This document shows, piece after piece, positions 1-33,503 of a stretch of 33,503 bases of DNA. The translations under genes and the position numbers were made by a program. Source of the DNA: Candidatus Thorarchaeota archaeon (GTDB taxonomy: Archaea; Asgardarchaeota; Thorarchaeia; Thorarchaeales; Thorarchaeaceae); NCBI GenBank assembly GCA_019057475.1, contig DXJO01000002.1:1-33503 (forward strand), read 5' to 3'. The notes under the pieces were generated by a model. It had not been told where the DNA came from. It searched no databases and was given only the letters and a program-made list of their open reading frames with translations. How positions within the stretch are numbered: the first letter of the stretch is position 1; each line of letters begins with the position of its first letter.

Positions 1-133
1 CGCCTGTGGAGAGGACGTGAGACTTGTCGCAGATTCAGTAGGATCTGCAGAGCAGACCTCAATGAATCAGGAACCGAACATCAGTCAAGGACATTGATGT
101 CCAAGATAGTATAAGTTTCGGGCAACGGTTCAC
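1..133 (+). mobile_element. 3' part/right end of an IS200/IS605-family (TnpB omega-RNA-like) element, truncated by the window start
   Basis: GCCTGTGGAGAGG...TGAATCAGGAA resembles the conserved tnpB 3'-end/omega-RNA motif. It has an 8-bp hairpin at 29-48, a subterminal hairpin at ~76-102, and GAACCG(71-76)/CGGTTC(126-131) complementarity. It ends in TTCAC(129-133), a typical IS605-type right-end motif. 22 of the first 25 nt are identical to 33431-33455. Confidence 0.6.
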
Positions 134-248
134 ACTGATGCTCTGACAGAGTGGCGCAAACTGAAGCCGGAAATCCCAGAAACTGGGCTCTACGAGATTC
201 CCATATGCGACGAAATCGAGCTGGAAAAGGACCTCCACTGAAATGCTG

Positions 249-545
249 TTACCTCCAAGGCCCGCCTCTCATTGCCCAGACAGCATCTTTTGAGAATCCC
301 CCGGGCAAGATCAATGCAATCAGACCGGCCACGATTAGAAGAACACCAAGGAGCAAAGCAAGAATTGCATAGCCTACGTAGTTTGACACGATGATTGAAG
401 AACCCGTATAGGCAGCAACTAGCACCACGCTGAGACCAAGAACAATAACACCGACAACAATAGCGACTCCCGAAATGAAAAGAATGCGACCTATGCGCTT
501 CAGCCTTGGCTGAGCTGGCGAACCTGTATCTGTTTCTTTGTTCAT
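249..545 (-). CDS. small two-TM membrane protein, unknown function
   Basis: From ORF 249..608, with the start moved to the ATG at 545 (MNKETD..., GA-rich SD-like stretch upstream). Two long hydrophobic segments. Confidence 0.7.
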   Translation of the reverse strand: MNKETDTGSPAQPRLKRIGRILFISGVAIVVGVIVLGLSVVLVAAYTGSSIIVSNYVGYAILALLLGVLLIVAGLIALILPGGFSKDAVWAMRGGPWR

Positions 546-667
546 TGCTTCCCCTCGAGTACTATCTTGACCCCTACCGAGATAAAGATTGAGTTCTAGT
601 GAGGGCAAGCGACAGTATCTTTAATACAGGTCAGGAGCAAATACCGCAAACACTCGGAGGAATAAAC

Positions 668-814
668 ATGCCCGAAAAGGAAAACGATGAAATTGTTGAT
701 TCTCAGAAGCTTTCGAACCGTGATAAGAAGGAACTCAAAGAAGGCCTGTGCGTAAATTGCGCGATTTTCGCGTTCATATTCATGTTTGCAGCAATGATTG
801 CGCTCGTTCTCTAG
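668..814 (+). CDS. 48-aa tail-anchored microprotein with CxxC before the TM helix
   Basis: GGAGG at 656-660 precedes the ATG at 668. Sequence MPEKENDE...GLCVNCAIFAFIFMFAAMIALVL has a charged N-terminus and a C-terminal hydrophobic helix. Confidence 0.6.
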   Translation: MPEKENDEIVDSQKLSNRDKKELKEGLCVNCAIFAFIFMFAAMIALVL

Positions 815-833
815 AAAAAGGAATTGCACTAGT

Positions 834-1205
834 ATGACGTTTCTAATCGACCCACCGCTGCTAATCATATTCGGCTATATATCGTTCGTCATAGGAAACG
901 CTCTGAAACACAAGACGCAGCTTCCGATATCGAAAGCTTTGGTTATATTCAGTTTCTGTACCATAATATTCACGAGCAGTTCACTTTACCTCAACATGGG
1001 GTATGTGGATTTCTTCTGGCTGCCGTTTGTGCCTGCTGTGGCATCGGGCAAAGACCTCATGATAAACTCGGGTATCTTTTCGTTCGAATCCACAGAAACA
1101 GCAGGACTCACTGACGCGCTTGCATTCCTACAGATAGCGATTTATCCGATTTGGATCTATCTTGGAGTGAAACTCTACCGTTACAGGCATAATGAGGGCC
1201 TTTGA
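834..1205 (+). CDS. small multi-pass membrane protein, unknown function
   Basis: From ORF 798..1205, with the likely ATG at 834 (MTFLIDPPLL...). About 3 hydrophobic helices; follows the microprotein closely. Confidence 0.7.
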   Translation: MTFLIDPPLLIIFGYISFVIGNALKHKTQLPISKALVIFSFCTIIFTSSSLYLNMGYVDFFWLPFVPAVASGKDLMINSGIFSFESTETAGLTDALAFLQIAIYPIWIYLGVKLYRYRHNEGL

Positions 1206-1256
1206 TAGCAGCTCGGAAAAAGAGGGGTGCGGGACCCAAAGGGCCCCAGGCTGATT

Positions 1257-2657
1257 CTAATCTTCATCCTCCTCATCGTCACCAAGTCGCTTTCCTGGCT
1301 TGAAGCGAGCCTTCTTCCTGTCAACAGAAAGCCGCCCGGGTTGCTCTCCAGATAGGTCATGTCCAGGCTTATCCTTCGAAATACCTTCAGCCCGCTCACT
1401 CGGCCATGACTCACCAGGAGCTGGAGCCCGCTCGGCTATCTCCTCATCTACTTCTCCGGCCTCGAAGGTCTCGCCCTCCTCCTTAGCTCTTTCGATTATG
1501 CGATCAACCCGTTGCACGCGCAAGTAGTACAGACTTGTGAAAATCGCAACCAATGGGAATGCTATGAGCTTCGCTATGTCTCTGAATATGAATGCAGCCG
1601 AGGGATTCGCTATAAGATCTGTTTCAAACCAACTAGCCAGAATCGCGCCGGGCGCAGCGGTGTGCACAGATATGATACTGTCAACAAAGAAGAACCCGCT
1701 GGCCAAAAAGAACGTGAGCAATGGTCCAAGATCACGTAAGTGAGACCGTGATTCCTCTACTGCATCGGTCACAGTTCGTCCAATGCCACTCATGGCATAT
1801 GCCAAGAAGAAGAGAGACATACCAATGTCCACTGGAGTCAATCCAAAAGCGTCAACCCTCCGAATCACGTTGAATAGGAAGTACCCCGAGTACAAGGCAA
1901 TGAAAACCGTCAATAACGCAACATTCAGGGCAGAGCCTTTCCTGGCGTATTTGAGATAGGAGAGGAAGGATATCACCCCAAAGAGACCCAACAACCCAAA
2001 TGCGAGAAGGAGATATGGCCAGTGAAGAGTGATGTTTGCTAGGGATTGTGGATAAGCCGCCTCAACAGAATCCCCTATTCCGAAGTAGTTGCCCGGCAAG
2101 AGAACTAAGGCAAAGATCGCTTCAGCTGCTATTATGATAAGTCCAATTACGAGTATGATGAAGCTACCAATGCTTATTCCCCAACCGCCCTTCTTTGGCT
2201 CTGCAATAGTAGCAATCCTCAAACTGGTTCTAGACGAGAGGTACGCTTGGAATGCAATCCAGCCAACCCAACAGAACATGGCAAAGAAGATCATGAGGCT
2301 GTTACCGAAGAACCTAGCCATGAACACTGAGATTGCAAAAGATATCGCAAACCATGAGAAGCCTATCATCTCGTTCCATTTGCCACGACCCCTGCGCTTT
2401 ATCCACAGCTTGTCCAGGCCCAACCCAGTGAGTATCGTGCCAATCATGAAGTAGATGGTGCCAGTGGCGCCTATGTAGGCAAAGAAATTCACCAAGAGTA
2501 CCTCGGTGGGTGTACCTACAAATTGCGTCATCAACCATGACACGAATAGACCCAGGAATGTAGTGGCAACGAAAATAGTCACATATGCAACAAATCGCTT
2601 GGTCTTGAAGAAGACCCCTAGTCCAGAAAACATATCGCTTAGAATCGGGATTCCCAA
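1257..2657 (-). CDS. polytopic membrane protein (~11 TM) with charged C-terminal tail, unknown function
   Basis: 466-aa ORF with a TTG start after an AGG-rich SD. Many hydrophobic segments and a ~85-aa hydrophilic tail ending DDEEDED. Confidence 0.85.
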   Translation of the reverse strand: MGIPILSDMFSGLGVFFKTKRFVAYVTIFVATTFLGLFVSWLMTQFVGTPTEVLLVNFFAYIGATGTIYFMIGTILTGLGLDKLWIKRRGRGKWNEMIGFSWFAISFAISVFMARFFGNSLMIFFAMFCWVGWIAFQAYLSSRTSLRIATIAEPKKGGWGISIGSFIILVIGLIIIAAEAIFALVLLPGNYFGIGDSVEAAYPQSLANITLHWPYLLLAFGLLGLFGVISFLSYLKYARKGSALNVALLTVFIALYSGYFLFNVIRRVDAFGLTPVDIGMSLFFLAYAMSGIGRTVTDAVEESRSHLRDLGPLLTFFLASGFFFVDSIISVHTAAPGAILASWFETDLIANPSAAFIFRDIAKLIAFPLVAIFTSLYYLRVQRVDRIIERAKEEGETFEAGEVDEEIAERAPAPGESWPSERAEGISKDKPGHDLSGEQPGRLSVDRKKARFKPGKRLGDDEEDED

Positions 2658-2778
2658 AGCAGAAACCTCCCTTACGCTGGTTTCTCTAGGTCAGCCTATG
2701 GTTTTAAGCTTTGCATTGACAAAGAGAGGATATTGAAAAATATCTTACCGCTGACGATACTTGCGCACCTCGCTGACC

Positions 2779-2784
2779 TTAATA
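2779..2784 (+). promoter_or_regulatory. putative TATA box for the candidate ncRNA at 2809-2896
   Basis: TTAATA lies 25-30 nt upstream of the first paired base of the predicted RNA. There is no + strand ORF downstream to explain it. Confidence 0.4.
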
Positions 2785-2808
2785 GACTTCCCGCGAATGT
2801 TAGATACA

Positions 2809-2896
2809 GTGGTCATGTAGCTGGCGGGGTCTAGTTCTGCAAGATGCCCTCGTTACAAACTCCCCCTCCTACCATAACCCTGCTAGCTCTGGCCAC
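2809..2896 (+). ncRNA. candidate structured small RNA (5'/3' terminal stem with C-rich loop)
   Basis: GTGGTCA(2809-15) pairs with TGGCCAC(2890-96), and AGCTGGCGGGGT(2819-30) pairs with ACCCTGCTAGCT(2877-88). That is 19 bp with three G-U pairs that work only on the + strand. Confidence 0.5.
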
Positions 2897-2901
2897 ACCT
2901 T

Positions 2902-3759
2902 CTACACTTCTTCAAACTCTTCGGTCTTGAGGGTCAGCTTCCGAGGATTTGCTAGTAGGCTAATTTCATGCCTGTGTTGCAGCGGAATGTCCTTTCCTTT
3001 CTGCCACTTCTTGAGCCCTTTCTCCAACCGCTTGAATATCTCACCGCGGTAAGCTATCACAACAGAAAAGCATTGGAGAATCCTGCAGAACCATTCGTTC
3101 TCAGCCAGGACAGAGTCCTTCACGTTTACAACAAACTCCCCGCCAACGTCACCCCACTTGCTATCAATCTCTGCTACGGTCTTGCCACTGGCTAGACGCA
3201 CGACCTTGAAATCATCGCCCATGGTTGCGCGCTTGCCTTCGATTCTGAAGACCTCGAACGTTTTGCCTGGCCCAAGGATGTAGAACGCGTAGTTCTCAGT
3301 GGCCATTGCACCGCGTCGAACTTGCCTGATGTAGGTGACAACCTCAGTTTCTCTTGAAACCACAGCGAATGCTAGCATTGGCTTATCAGAAACATAGCTA
3401 TTCGTGTATTCATCTGCCACCATCTCTTCTATTGTTGCAACCCACGAACCGCGGGATGTGAAAAGCTTCAAAACAAGACGACGCAACAGCTCATCTTCCT
3501 GGTCGTGCCATACTGATTTCCGTAGGATAATGAATCCAGTCCGCTCCATCTTGGATAGCTTCTTTTCGCCACGTTTCGTCTTCGCTTCCTCTATCTTCCC
3601 GATTATGTCAGCGTCTCTGGTGAACTGGCGGCTCTTGGCTCTCCAGACTTCATACTGGCGCAGTCCAACCTCTTCACCATGAAATCCTGTACTGTAGAGA
3701 TCCTGTGACAGAATTCGAAACACAGGACCGACCTTTCGATCATCTTCATTCTTTGGCAT
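2902..3759 (-). CDS. hypothetical soluble protein, possibly LURP1/Tubby-C/scramblase-like beta-barrel
   Basis: 285-aa ATG ORF. Repeated beta-hairpin segments such as DFKVVRLASGKTVAEIDSKWGDVGGEFVVNV are followed by a C-terminal helix. The fold call is tentative. Confidence 0.75.
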   Translation of the reverse strand: MPKNEDDRKVGPVFRILSQDLYSTGFHGEEVGLRQYEVWRAKSRQFTRDADIIGKIEEAKTKRGEKKLSKMERTGFIILRKSVWHDQEDELLRRLVLKLFTSRGSWVATIEEMVADEYTNSYVSDKPMLAFAVVSRETEVVTYIRQVRRGAMATENYAFYILGPGKTFEVFRIEGKRATMGDDFKVVRLASGKTVAEIDSKWGDVGGEFVVNVKDSVLAENEWFCRILQCFSVVIAYRGEIFKRLEKGLKKWQKGKDIPLQHRHEISLLANPRKLTLKTEEFEEV

Positions 3760-29669: not shown

Positions 29670-30911
29670 TCAGTTTAGCCTGCCACGCCTTCTGAGGAAC
29701 TCATCCATCTTCAGCAGGCCCCTTAAGAGCCGCTGGTAATCTGAATTAAGCCAGTAGTTCTCGTAAGTACACTCCTCAGACCCTCCGCCTGAAGGAATCA
29801 TCGGCAGGTCTGAGATGGCTTCTGACACATTAATTGGGGGCGGATAAGCGGCTGATGTCATCCTTGCGTCCTCTCGCTGACGACCTCTTGTGACGGAGGA
29901 AAATGAAGGAAGTGGCGATTCCAATTTCCTGCCAGTTCTGTTAGCGAGGACAACCAAGCGCCTACGTCTCTGAGGAACACCGTATTGTTCTGCATTCAAC
30001 TGAAAACAATGACAACTGTATCCAAATGATTCCAGAAACTCGATTGTCTTGCGTAGTACCTTGCCATTCTGCATGTGCCGCATTCCAGGAACATTCTCAA
30101 TTACGGCATAATCTGGCATGAACTCACTAACAATCTCCAGCATGGGAACAATCAAGCTGTTTCTCATGTCAGCGGGGTCTCGCTTTCCCGCCGTTGAGAA
30201 GCCTTGACACGGAGGGCCCCCTGTCACTATTCGAAGTGTTCGCCCTCCAAGCACACCCTCAATCGACTGCTTTAAAGATTCATACTGAACTTCGTCAGCG
30301 ATGTCAGCTTGAACAACAGAAGCATCTGAATGATTGTGTTTCAGAGTCTTGCACATGCTGGTGTTGATATCTGATGCCAGGACTACGCGGTGTCCAGCCT
30401 GCGAAAGGCCTTCTGATATGCCTCCGGCCCCGGCAAATAGATCAACAGCTAGACCTGCCTTAATCGTTTCTCCAATTGCTCTTGCCATTAACGGCGGCAC
30501 AGCGTTGCCAATCTGTTTCCGCATTGAGGCCGCACTGCCGAAGAATCTGTACTCGTCTGGAAACGATTGAAGTCGTGCCGCTTCTCGATGGCTTATCAAG
30601 CGGTCTTGATCAGGGTGAATGAATGTGCCATTTCCTGGGCGATTATAGTAGGTGTTGACTGTGTAGCTTGGATGGTCGCCTCTAAGACGCCCATAGTATG
30701 TAGTCCGTCCTCCAGATGCCCTGATTTGAGTAAGGCGCGAAGACTTTCGTACGGTTTCAAGGGGTATGTCCTTCCAGTTCCCTCCAGGAGGGACTGAGCG
30801 AACCATCTCCATGTCAAGGTCACTTAGAGAAGAACAGACATGGTTGTACAGGAGTCCAGATCCCTTCAAGCCTGATGCAAGCTCAACAGTCGATAACAAC
30901 ATCCAACTCAA
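29670..30911 (-). CDS. circularly permuted DNA (cytosine-5)-methyltransferase, Alw26I/Eco31I/Esp3I type
   Basis: TRD plus motifs IX (REAARLQSFP) and X (QIGNAVPP) come before I (DLFAGAGG), IV (GGPPCQGFS), VI (ENV) and VIII (QRRRR). Start codon uncertain. Confidence 0.92.
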   Translation of the reverse strand: MSWMLLSTVELASGLKGSGLLYNHVCSSLSDLDMEMVRSVPPGGNWKDIPLETVRKSSRLTQIRASGGRTTYYGRLRGDHPSYTVNTYYNRPGNGTFIHPDQDRLISHREAARLQSFPDEYRFFGSAASMRKQIGNAVPPLMARAIGETIKAGLAVDLFAGAGGISEGLSQAGHRVVLASDINTSMCKTLKHNHSDASVVQADIADEVQYESLKQSIEGVLGGRTLRIVTGGPPCQGFSTAGKRDPADMRNSLIVPMLEIVSEFMPDYAVIENVPGMRHMQNGKVLRKTIEFLESFGYSCHCFQLNAEQYGVPQRRRRLVVLANRTGRKLESPLPSFSSVTRGRQREDARMTSAAYPPPINVSEAISDLPMIPSGGGSEECTYENYWLNSDYQRLLRGLLKMDEFLRRRGRLN

Positions 30912-30974
30912 CTAACTGCGCTAATCAATTCATCTTTGAAAACCTTGATAATACAAGCTTGGGGCGATGTATAA

Positions 30975-33209
30975 CTAGGCTATCTCGCTCATTGCAGTCA
31001 TTGTTTCACGAACTTCATCTTGGTTCGCACCCCTTGAGGTCATGACAAACCTCGCTTCATTCAGTCCCAAGCCGTACAAGAGAAACACACGCGCTTCAAC
31101 GCTGGAACTTGGAGAGCTTCCTTTCGATAACATATCCTGTACATCATTGACTATCTCGCCAACGAGATCAGTAATGCGTTGATTCTGAGAATGAGGATCT
31201 GTGATAGGCAGAGATGCCAACTCACGGTTGGAAACATGGTTGTTCGCGTTGCTCAGATCGAACCTCCAGTTAAGGAGATCCGAGTTAAGGATGCCAAGCA
31301 TGTAGGAGAGTAGCCACTCATCTTTCGAGGGGCCCACTGCAACATAATTGCATGAGTTTGCGAGTACGGTCTTAGGTGGGACCATGGCGAATTTGAGACG
31401 CCAGCGTTGTGCACGGTTTGAAACCTGTTGGCAGGCTATCCGCGAATCGAAGATGTGAGGACTTCTCGCAGAGGAACCCAGTGATTTGACAAAGGACGAC
31501 AGTCCAACGCTCTCAGACTCACGTTTGATTGGTCGCAGTGTGTATCGTGAGATGTCAGCTCCTCTGACAAGGCGACTACCCTTCTTGCCTAGTTTGATGT
31601 GTTCCTTGCTCAGCGTGAGGTCAAGCTCACCCCTCCGATTCTGAAGCCAAGGGAGTGAGCCGAGGGTCGGATTCTCGTGAAGCGTTTTCAGTATTCGCCA
31701 TCCTGTTTGATTCACTCTTGGTATCACCATGGATTCACCCATGACCTGTTCGATATCGTCGACTCTGAGTTTCAACCGGGTCTTTGTCTGAGCATCGTGA
31801 ACGTCGCTCAATCCGAAGCTTGCACTCAGACTCTCTGTCGAACTGCACGTTTCAACAGTCATCACACAAACGGATTGAGTAACACCGGGAAACAATCTTG
31901 CACGCTCGGTGTACTCATCTATGCGCAATAAGCAGTGCTTGCTCAATAGATGCCGCCTGAGTAGCCCCGCAGAAATATCTCCAAGGAGTGTGGAGGGAAC
32001 GACGACCCCAAGGCGGCCTCCATGACGGGCCAATCGTAAGGCTTGCTCAATGAATAGACGATAAGTGTTGATCGTGTACCGATTGCCTAGAGCGTACTCT
32101 CCTGAGTTCCTGAAGTACGCTATGTCTTCTCGAAGGTCAACCTTGTAATCCTCAAAGTCCTGCAAGTGAATAGTCCGATCGCCTGACTGAAGGCGCTCTC
32201 TCAAAAACTCGGCCAAATTCGGTTTCAGCCTCTCATAAGGCGGATTCATCACAATGAAATCAAAGCCCCTGGCGCCCCGAGCGAGTATGTCGGGAAACTC
32301 TGATTGCCATTCAAAGGGACACCTAGAGGCGGAATCTTCAAAGAAGCTCGTGTGGTTTGCAGACCCATCCCACCCATTCATCATCACCAATGAGTTGCCT
32401 TGCTTCAATGTTCGCCCCAAGGTGGAGGAGGTCGCAGATGCAGGGTCTTGACCTAGAAGGAGTGCAATGGAAATGCCTGCAATCTCAAGCGCGGCTTTAT
32501 CAATATCTACTCCGAATAGATTCTCGCGCAGTACTCCCGGCAGATTAATAGAAGTCAGACCAACCTTCTTGGCAGCCGCCTCAATTGTTGATCTTCTCCT
32601 TCTGAACGCTTCAATTGCTGATAAGAGAAATGCTCCAGGCCCACATGCGGGGTCGAGTACTTTCAATGAGAGGAATTGCTCAAACTCCTCCAAATCGCCT
32701 TTCTGAATACCTGCAAGTCTTCGATCCAACTCGGCTCCAATAGTCATCTCGCAAATGTAATCCGACACGGTAAGAGGTGTGTAGATTGCACCTAAAGCTC
32801 TCCGAGATGGATGCCCTCTGCGGCCTGCGGGCAGCGAGAAACAGCCGTAGGAGTGTATCTGAGCAAGAAGCTCAGCTAAGTTTCGAGGAGTGGCGGACTT
32901 GACTTTGGCGGCGTAAGCATCGCCGTTCCAAATCTCAAGAGCTGACCGGGCCGTTTCAATTGCATCTCTCGGCGATACTCCATATTTCTCAGCTTCATGC
33001 GAAAGATGAGAGAGTAATGGGACAGGCTTTCTGATGATCTCGTCAGCTTGAGAATCAGTGCACTGTGCAACAGTCCAAGTCAAGGCGGCGATTCTGGCGG
33101 CCTCTGCGGGGGTTCGCATGTCCACTAAGGGTTTGGATGCAATGCCAATTATCTTGGAGTGCAGTGATTTGACAATGCTCCAGGCCAAACCACCGTTTCC
33201 TCTCAACAA
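30975..33209 (-). CDS. N6-adenine DNA methyltransferase (gamma class), Alw26I/Eco31I/Esp3I-like
   Basis: GAIYTP, VLDPACGPGAFL, GVDID, NPPYERLKP, LFPGVTQ, RGELDLT, QQVSN, LANSCNY and NNHVSNREL. Start codon uncertain. Confidence 0.9.
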   Translation of the reverse strand: MLRGNGGLAWSIVKSLHSKIIGIASKPLVDMRTPAEAARIAALTWTVAQCTDSQADEIIRKPVPLLSHLSHEAEKYGVSPRDAIETARSALEIWNGDAYAAKVKSATPRNLAELLAQIHSYGCFSLPAGRRGHPSRRALGAIYTPLTVSDYICEMTIGAELDRRLAGIQKGDLEEFEQFLSLKVLDPACGPGAFLLSAIEAFRRRRSTIEAAAKKVGLTSINLPGVLRENLFGVDIDKAALEIAGISIALLLGQDPASATSSTLGRTLKQGNSLVMMNGWDGSANHTSFFEDSASRCPFEWQSEFPDILARGARGFDFIVMNPPYERLKPNLAEFLRERLQSGDRTIHLQDFEDYKVDLREDIAYFRNSGEYALGNRYTINTYRLFIEQALRLARHGGRLGVVVPSTLLGDISAGLLRRHLLSKHCLLRIDEYTERARLFPGVTQSVCVMTVETCSSTESLSASFGLSDVHDAQTKTRLKLRVDDIEQVMGESMVIPRVNQTGWRILKTLHENPTLGSLPWLQNRRGELDLTLSKEHIKLGKKGSRLVRGADISRYTLRPIKRESESVGLSSFVKSLGSSARSPHIFDSRIACQQVSNRAQRWRLKFAMVPPKTVLANSCNYVAVGPSKDEWLLSYMLGILNSDLLNWRFDLSNANNHVSNRELASLPITDPHSQNQRITDLVGEIVNDVQDMLSKGSSPSSSVEARVFLLYGLGLNEARFVMTSRGANQDEVRETMTAMSEIA

Positions 33210-33339
33210 TGTAATCCCTATCAGGGCAATTCATGTCAAGATGAAAAGGGTATGTAACAGCTGCAGAAAACCTGTATAAAATTGGACATCTCTTAGATGA
33301 ATAGCGAATCGAAGACCCTTTTTTGTAGGTGTTAATATA

Positions 33340-33503
33340 CTCCAGAGAGGGACCTGTACATGTAGTGTCAGTCCAAGACGAGAACCAAGTCCAAGGATGA
33401 CTCTACCGTCAGTTGGCCGGGGACGTAAAATGCCCGTGGAGAGGACGTAAGACTTTCAGTTAATTCTTCAGAATTAACAAAAAGCAACCTCGATGAAGCA
33501 GGA
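33340..33503 (+). mobile_element. 5' part of a non-coding IS200/IS605-type element (putative left end + omega-RNA-like scaffold, no tnpB upstream), truncated by the window end
   Basis: Hairpin GGAC...GTCC(33350-74) followed by AAGA. TACCGTCAG...TGCCCGTGGAGAGG...TGAAGCAGGA resembles tnpB 3'-end/omega-RNA. Colinear with window positions 1-72. Left boundary approximate. Confidence 0.6.

Follow-up and report, generated by a model that had tools for sequence, protein, structure and literature searches.

Both ends of the window, i.e. the whole stretch of 33,503 nt of Thorarchaeota DNA that was analysed, are very probably pieces of an IS607-type element with tnpB as its only gene and of its gene-less derivatives, the scaffold of an omega RNA (reRNA) being located at the right end of the element. 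The homologous unit is a 157-nt RNA scaffold within a mobile element of ~278 or 1336 nt, and not the 72 nt that had been compared in the preliminary description, both window-end copies being cut by the contig ends. The host genome (G000, Thorarchaeota) comprised 3.34 Mb in 56 contigs and was 96% complete, and its assembly breaks at these repeats.

To begin with, the preliminary description had reported the colinearity of positions 1-72 and 33431-33503, with identity at 22 of the first 25 bases, and an equally placed hairpin in both, made of an 8-bp stem and a 4-nt loop; these observations were reproduced. Pairs 2, 3 and 4 of this hairpin are compensated between the two copies (C-G to U-A, A-U to U-A and G-C to A-U, respectively), and pair 7 shows a single G-U to A-U change, from U-G in the first copy to U-A in the second. 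Moreover, the outer GAGG/CCTC pairing is present in both copies (at 33441-33444/33488-33491 in the second), as is a downstream TGAA (63-66 and 33494-33497). A covariance model built from other copies (R1; 157 positions, 23 copies) matched positions 1-128 with 147.5 bits (E 5e-38; model positions 30-157) and positions 33402-33503 with 80.2 bits (E 3.6e-20; model positions 1-101), with no further match in the whole window. The likeness of the two ends is therefore far beyond chance.

Table 1. Features at the two ends of the window, named according to the element and RNA assigned in the text
Feature	Positions	Strand	Basis or remark
3′ 128 nt of the subfamily-A omega RNA scaffold, forming the right end of the element	1-128	+	5′ side cut by the contig start
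Outer 4-bp stem GAGG (11-14)/CCTC (57-60) enclosing the hairpin	11-60	+	4/4 pairs compensated across 39 sequences
Hairpin of the preliminary description, 8-bp stem and 4-nt loop, variable in sequence and length	29-48	+	7/8 pairs change on both sides
Hairpin, first copy: GCAGATTC (29-36), loop agta, GGATCTGC (41-48)	29-48	+	8 bp including one U-G
Hairpin, second copy: GTTAATTC (33459-33466), loop ttca, GAATTAAC (33471-33478)	33459-33478	+	8 Watson-Crick bp
Long-range 4-bp stem CCGA (74-77)/TCGG (118-121) around the terminal hairpin	74-121	+	4/4 pairs change on both sides
Terminal hairpin: 5 bp, 2x2 internal loop, 5 bp, loop TTGA	82-109	+	changes at both bases in 10/10 pairs
CAAC, 3′ strand of the pseudoknot; partner, the GUUG loop of stem-loop 1, lies off the contig	123-126	+	covariation
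Terminal GG, last scaffold bases and IS607-type crossover dinucleotide	127-128	+	all copies end in CAACGG; homology of G075; empty site
Predicted guide TTCACACTGATGCTCT	129-144	+	putative role, from TnpB biology (PMC10097598, 10.1101/2023.11.20.567912)
AGGG flank of the left end, predicted TAM; last GG is the crossover dinucleotide	33247-33250	+	flank tally
Left end and internal remnant of a subfamily-B gene-less mini-element, starting TATGTAACAGCTGC...	33251-33401	+	left-end motif scan
5′ 102 nt of the subfamily-B omega RNA scaffold, cut by the contig end	33402-33503	+	cmsearch
Subfamily-B stem-loop 1, loop GTTG (33412-33415)	33402-33424	+	within the scaffold 33402-33503

The first 120 bases of the window matched ~40 places in the host genome. 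Copies of the window-start type (subfamily A) were 92-100% identical to one another, the scaffold at 1-128 showing this identity to ~25 other copies, while those of the window-end type (subfamily B) were ~76% identical to A and were all located at contig ends; a further variant (subfamily C) was found on contig C54. The left part of the window-end copy was 94-100% identical to other subfamily-B copies. Regarding the boundaries, a motif scan identified ~30 genuine right ends in the genome, all of them ending in ...GTTTCGGGCAACGG, and the sequence 3′ of CAACGG differed between all ~30. The alignment of interior copies with their flanks established that the unit runs from TATGCAACAGCTGCC to CAACGG. 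The full element has 1336 nt, and its common form is a gene-less derivative of 277-280 nt, represented by 12 complete copies. Furthermore, an intermediate on C54 retains the first 33 and the last ~50 tnpB codons, which shows that internal deletions gave rise to the short forms. In the same-genus genome G075, homology to the window begins at the right-end boundary, position 128, and the predicted guide was therefore placed from position 129, its length of 16 nt being an assumption taken from ISDra2.

A total of 35 out of 112 contig ends (31%) fell within the family, in support of the earlier guess that the contig breaks at a multicopy family. The remainder of the window-end copy was found on C8 (95-nt overlap, 100% identity) or C26 (83 nt, 100%), and the left part of the window-start copy is probably the one at the end of C3 (95-nt overlap, 100%). 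In addition, the pieces C34:1-41 and C53:1-91 of the host genome have an identical right end and an identical 30-nt flank, and they probably represent one locus assembled twice, so the copy counts given here are slightly inflated.

Three copies (on C18, C31 and C19) extend upstream into a TnpB ORF. The one on C18 encodes 408 aa (P0001), with the domains OrfB_IS605, Cas12f1-like TNB and HTH_OrfB_IS605, and the ORF matched the solved structures of ISDra2 TnpB from end to end (E 1e-68), the two proteins having about 408 aa each. The motifs VDLG, IEDL and DRD and two Cys pairs were spotted by eye in P0001, and, read in this way, they would correspond to the RuvC triad and the zinc finger. In full-length copies, the scaffold overlaps the last ~42 tnpB codons, and the stop codon TGA is placed in the loop of the terminal hairpin. 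TnpB relatives with 90-92% identity were present in Thorarchaeota genomes. A cognate tnpB for subfamilies B and C was not found in the host genome, where both appeared only as gene-less forms. Seven more matches to the TnpB zinc-ribbon/TNB domain were observed in this genome within frames of 572-766 aa, which is much longer than a usual TnpB (C42:187607, C53:9035, C9:22325, C18:47630, C54:173640, C42:35620 and C54:74875).

The structure of the RNA was assessed by covariation. In an alignment of 23 copies made with MAFFT only (A3), 11 cells changed on both sides compared with 2.2 expected, a value that none of 500 shuffles reached, and 93.7% of the pair cells of the 23-copy alignment were paired. 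When 39 diverse sequences were considered, 93% of the cells paired, and 30 of the 38 pairs, amounting to 168 cells, changed on both sides; again, none of 500 shuffles reached the observed values, and slid controls paired at only 34-51%. In particular, seven of the eight pairs in the hairpin first described changed on both sides, and the structure as a whole exceeded all 500 shuffles and all slid controls, which upholds the proposal that the structure is under selection. Since the alignment of 39 sequences had been fitted to the model and was hence biased toward the structure, model-independent evidence was sought in single-sequence folds and in the pseudoknot. Single-sequence folds of the segment recovered an outer stem around an inner hairpin in most sequences, and the minimum-free-energy fold of one copy recovered three of the hairpins (z = -2.6). 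In the pseudoknot, which lies outside the model, the CAAC preceding the terminal GG pairs with the GUUG loop of stem-loop 1. Its pair 14-236 (alignment A4) was found as GC (25), CG (5), GU (3), UG (2) and UA (1), and a second pair changes on both sides in an Acidiphilium copy. The outer stem also occurs with other sequences in bacterial copies, e.g. as GCCGG/CCGGC.

Other pairings were rejected. The one between CCUG-U (model positions 33-36) and ACGG (154-157) proposed by RNAalifold contained no pair changing on both sides and competes with the covarying pseudoknot; an AAAC/GUUU pseudoknot was invariant and hence uninformative; and a TGAA (63-66)/TTCA (129-132) pseudoknot, with TTCAC as the end of the element, was at odds with the boundary at 128. 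As for individual copies, pair 83-108 of the terminal hairpin is broken (A-A) in the window-start copy. In a subfamily-A mini-copy of the host genome (C24:48642-48913; L027:1472-1623), the terminal hairpin has been swapped for a longer one, CCATTAGGA...TCCTAATTGG, which is a structural swap rather than decay. Besides, a copy in G075 (C8:146-302; L080) combines the first stem-loop and pseudoknot region of subfamily B with the central hairpin of subfamily A, a mosaic that suggests recombination between subfamilies.

This is the architecture of published TnpB RNAs, in which stem-loop 1 uses its loop for pairing beside the guide, and stem 3, flexible and dispensable in its distal part, is enclosed by stem 2 of 4 bp (PMC10097598, PMC10711439). 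The match with stems 2-4 of ISDra2 is one of topology only, the sequences not being aligned; on this basis, the outer stem may correspond to stem 2 and the hairpin of the preliminary description to stem 3. The latter correspondence would explain why the hairpin varies freely in sequence and length with its pairing kept.

The covariance model matched in 42 of the 151 sampled genomes of the phylum and at tnpB 3′ ends in Actinomycetota, Peribacteraceae, Proteobacteria and Thermoplasmata MAGs. Furthermore, R1 matched behind three of the four bona fide bacterial IS607 elements that were fetched (E 2e-16 to 1.5e-7). The RNA thus occurs throughout the phylum as well as in bacteria, and the two window copies were assigned to subfamilies that are ~76% identical; both results support the proposed old origin of the family over a recent duplication. 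The preliminary description had implicitly read the two copies as an independent, undescribed structured RNA family merely located near transposon ends. The lack of an Rfam match, both for the window with gathering thresholds and for a full-length copy with E up to 10, would fit this reading; however, all the homologues with enough context lay at a tnpB 3′ end or in a tnpB deletion derivative, and the architecture is that of the published TnpB RNAs, with the loop of stem-loop 1 pairing by the guide, nested stems and a variable flank (PMC10097598, PMC10711439). An independent family is thus extremely unlikely.

The assignment to IS607 was based on the ends, the insertion site and the relatives of the element. 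IS607 elements have GG at both termini, a GG target and no target-site duplication (PMC6188088), and nearly all the copies analysed here presented GG before TATGC and a terminal CAACGG. Among the left flanks of 32 ends, AGGG was the most frequent (19), followed by GGGG (6) and other G-rich 4-mers (7; AAGG 2, GAGG 2, CGGG 1, AGAG 1, AGGA 1). The AGGG flank matches the published TAMs of IS607 TnpBs, TGGG and GGG (10.1101/2023.11.20.567912, PMC10711439). In particular, the TAM of CboTnpB is TGGG, with a scaffold ending in UCGG (10.1101/2023.11.20.567912), and that of ISXfa1 is GGG (PMC10711439). The best NCBIfam match of the protein was IS607_TnpB (342.8 bits, just missing the cut-off of 350), the score for IS200_TnpB being 333.8 bits (cut-off 425). 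Moreover, its closest annotated relatives (46-50% identity, in Rhodothermus, Acidiphilium, Thermus and Thermaerobacter) are encoded directly behind IS607 transposase genes.

Insertion polymorphism was found within the genus. G075 harbours a 278-nt copy on C78, while the corresponding site of the host genome (C42:54739/54740) is empty; the junctions share only GG, with no duplication besides this 2-nt overlap, and the GG ambiguity could also be read as an insertion after GGGG without a shared core. A clean empty site was also sought for the window-start copy on C50 of G075 and none was found, only the right flank being syntenic; the left side of G075 at C50 matches C43, C51 and C17. The flanks of the copy at 180 kb on C42 were not found in five relatives. 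The short forms have both ends, lack an intact gene, are multicopy and are polymorphic in their insertion, as expected of MITE/PATE-like mini-elements.

The preliminary description had spoken of a functional RNA/ssDNA family. The ssDNA alternative is unlikely for a dsDNA element moved by a serine recombinase. In a rival explanation of this kind, the hairpins would be DNA-level signals, namely the subterminal hairpins of an IS200/IS605 element mobilized by Y1 'peel and paste' and read by TnpA on ssDNA. The ends of such elements do have hairpins, the IS200_TnpB and IS607_TnpB models fit the protein equally well, the nearest solved structure (ISDra2) comes from an IS605 element, and the reading of the GG ambiguity as an insertion 3′ of GGGG would suit this explanation. 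However, a search for the Y1 transposase (PF01797) gave no match in the 96%-complete host genome, with the identical search being positive in six control genomes, and the hairpin lies 80-100 nt from the end, i.e. not subterminally. In addition, the GG at both ends and the RGGG flank are IS607-like, with no sign at the left flank of the Y1-family insertion motif (3′ of TTAC/TTGAT-like sequences); the closest annotated relatives have serine transposases of IS607 type as partners and share this RNA; and the covariation of the pseudoknot joins bases 140 nt apart, as in TnpB RNAs. Subterminal DNA signals are thus a very unlikely explanation, and the classification of the element as IS200/IS605 (IS1341-type) was dropped in favour of IS607 on account of the GG ends, the empty site, the NCBIfam match and the plasmid relatives.

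No serine-recombinase tnpA was found beside the copies, the two genes with a resolvase domain in the host genome (C19 and C53) not being adjacent to them. Likewise, only unrelated genes appeared upstream of tnpB when TnpA was looked for in seven related loci from archaeal and MAG relatives. The copies were therefore considered non-autonomous, as most tnpB elements are (PMC10055086).

Regarding the conservation of the mini-copies, the column identity was higher in their scaffold (93.6%) than in their left-end parts (87.5-88.1%), in keeping with selection acting on them. This bears on whether the stretch could be a relic, namely C-terminal tnpB coding sequence that is decaying in dead mini-elements and has no present RNA function, with compensatory changes inherited from an older functional ancestor. 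Such a relic would account for the reading frame, which the stretch shares with tnpB in full-length copies, for the transposase partner not being found, and for the pairs broken in some copies (e.g. 83-108 in the window) or the terminal hairpin replaced on C24. However, the scaffold of gene-less copies is better conserved than the remaining parts of the element, and 93.7% of the pair cells are still paired; besides, intact tnpB genes with the by-eye RuvC-triad and zinc-finger motifs coexist in the genome, the insertions are polymorphic within the genus, and the subfamily-B copies, with 94-100% identity, point to a recent spread. Decay of a coding region is thus most unlikely, and the omega RNA scaffold of an IS607-type element is the reading retained below.

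As for the genes next to the two copies, the segment 131-241 (+), just 3′ of the right end, encodes the last ~36 residues of a GNAT acetyltransferase-like protein according to our own reading of the translation, with no Pfam family matching this 36-aa piece. The counterpart in G075 (L114:1440-1560) has the motif RFYQRRGF and a longer tail that is also preceded by a stop codon, and a 90-nt block of the tail is repeated in the host genome at C51:73064-73153 and C17:13493-13578. The piece has the appearance of a displaced gene tail. Beside the element, four ORFs of 90-466 aa (249-3759, -) had no Pfam match. At the other end of the window (29670-33209, -), two genes were identified, one for a C-5 cytosine DNA methylase and one for an Eco57I/MmeI-like methylase-specificity protein of 744 aa; the subfamily-B mini-element lies 41 nt upstream of this second, restriction-modification gene, measured from its start, in divergent orientation.

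Concerning the mechanism, the scaffold begins within the 3′ end of tnpB and runs to the right end ...CAACGG, and transcription would continue into the flanking DNA, giving each copy its own guide. By analogy with published TnpB work, the RNA would be expressed and bound by TnpB through the scaffold, with the pseudoknot and stems 1-2 presumably read by the protein and the hairpin first described protruding as a stem 3 free in sequence, and it would guide cleavage next to the TAM. After excision of the element, TnpB might cut the joint of AGGG and flank, so that the element would be restored by recombination (10.1101/2023.11.20.567912). The mini-elements, in turn, may supply guides that are loaded in trans by TnpB made elsewhere (PMC10055086). 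Subfamilies B and C differ from A mainly by compensated changes in stems possibly unread by the protein. A further-reaching proposal based on this, which is speculative and unlikely, is that the TnpB of subfamily A loads the guides of all ~30 dispersed mini-elements as a scattered, transposon-borne multi-guide repertoire, some copies of which could have been adopted by the host. If this were the case, adopted copies could act, e.g. in regulation, next to the restriction-modification genes located at the end of the window. Since an origin of Fanzors from IS607 TnpBs is assumed, a thriving Asgard lineage of IS607 type could also bear on how such nucleases reached eukaryotes.

The results explain what breaks this assembly. 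For an Asgard IS607-type TnpB RNA missing from Rfam, they define the boundaries exactly and provide a structure backed by covariation and a predicted TAM, AGGG, which would be useful for annotating these genomes and for choosing compact RNA-guided nucleases to test. The RNA class has already been described, and the present RNA is a lineage-specific member of it rather than a new kind of RNA or mechanism. Its closest counterparts are the omega RNAs of IS607 TnpBs such as those of CboIStron and ISXfa1 (10.1101/2023.11.20.567912, PMC10711439), which likewise overlap the 3′ end of tnpB and run to the right end. As in these elements, the scaffold ends in ...CGG, GG appears at both ends, and the left flank is NGGG (AGGG here vs. 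TGGG/GGG in the published cases). Moreover, the third base from the end, G in the flank and C at the end of the element, reproduces the published self/non-self distinction of IS607 TnpBs. Unlike CboIStron and ISXfa1, the present element is hosted by an Asgard archaeon, has no linked serine tnpA and no group I intron, and is known from its sequence; about 76-92% of this sequence is lineage-specific, and it has no Rfam entry.

The omega RNA of ISDra2, solved by cryo-EM (PMC10097598; PDB 8H1J, 8BF8/8EXA), is similar in its pseudoknot between the loop region of stem 1 and bases 5′ of the guide, in its 4-bp stem 2 around stem 3 and in its last hairpin with a tetraloop, this likeness being one of topology with the sequences left unaligned. 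However, ISDra2 is an IS200/IS605 element with Y1 TnpA, a TTGAT TAM and a scaffold ending at the transposon boundary. On the other hand, the mini-elements resemble the PATE-like gene-less IS derivatives (PMC10055086), which have both ends, no protein gene and many copies and retain the omega RNA, and both are presumed to require TnpB and a transposase in trans (PMC10055086). Whereas the PATE-like elements are IS200/IS605 derivatives in Geobacillus, those described here are archaeal, of IS607 type and generated by an internal deletion that leaves short tnpB remnants. Finally, the RNA recalls the sense-overlapping transcripts of archaeal IS1341-type tnpB (Gomes-Filho et al. 2015, cited in PMC12558985), in which a non-coding RNA also covers the 3′ end of tnpB-only elements; those transcripts were detected by transcriptomics in haloarchaea, while the RNA reported here was deduced from genome sequences.
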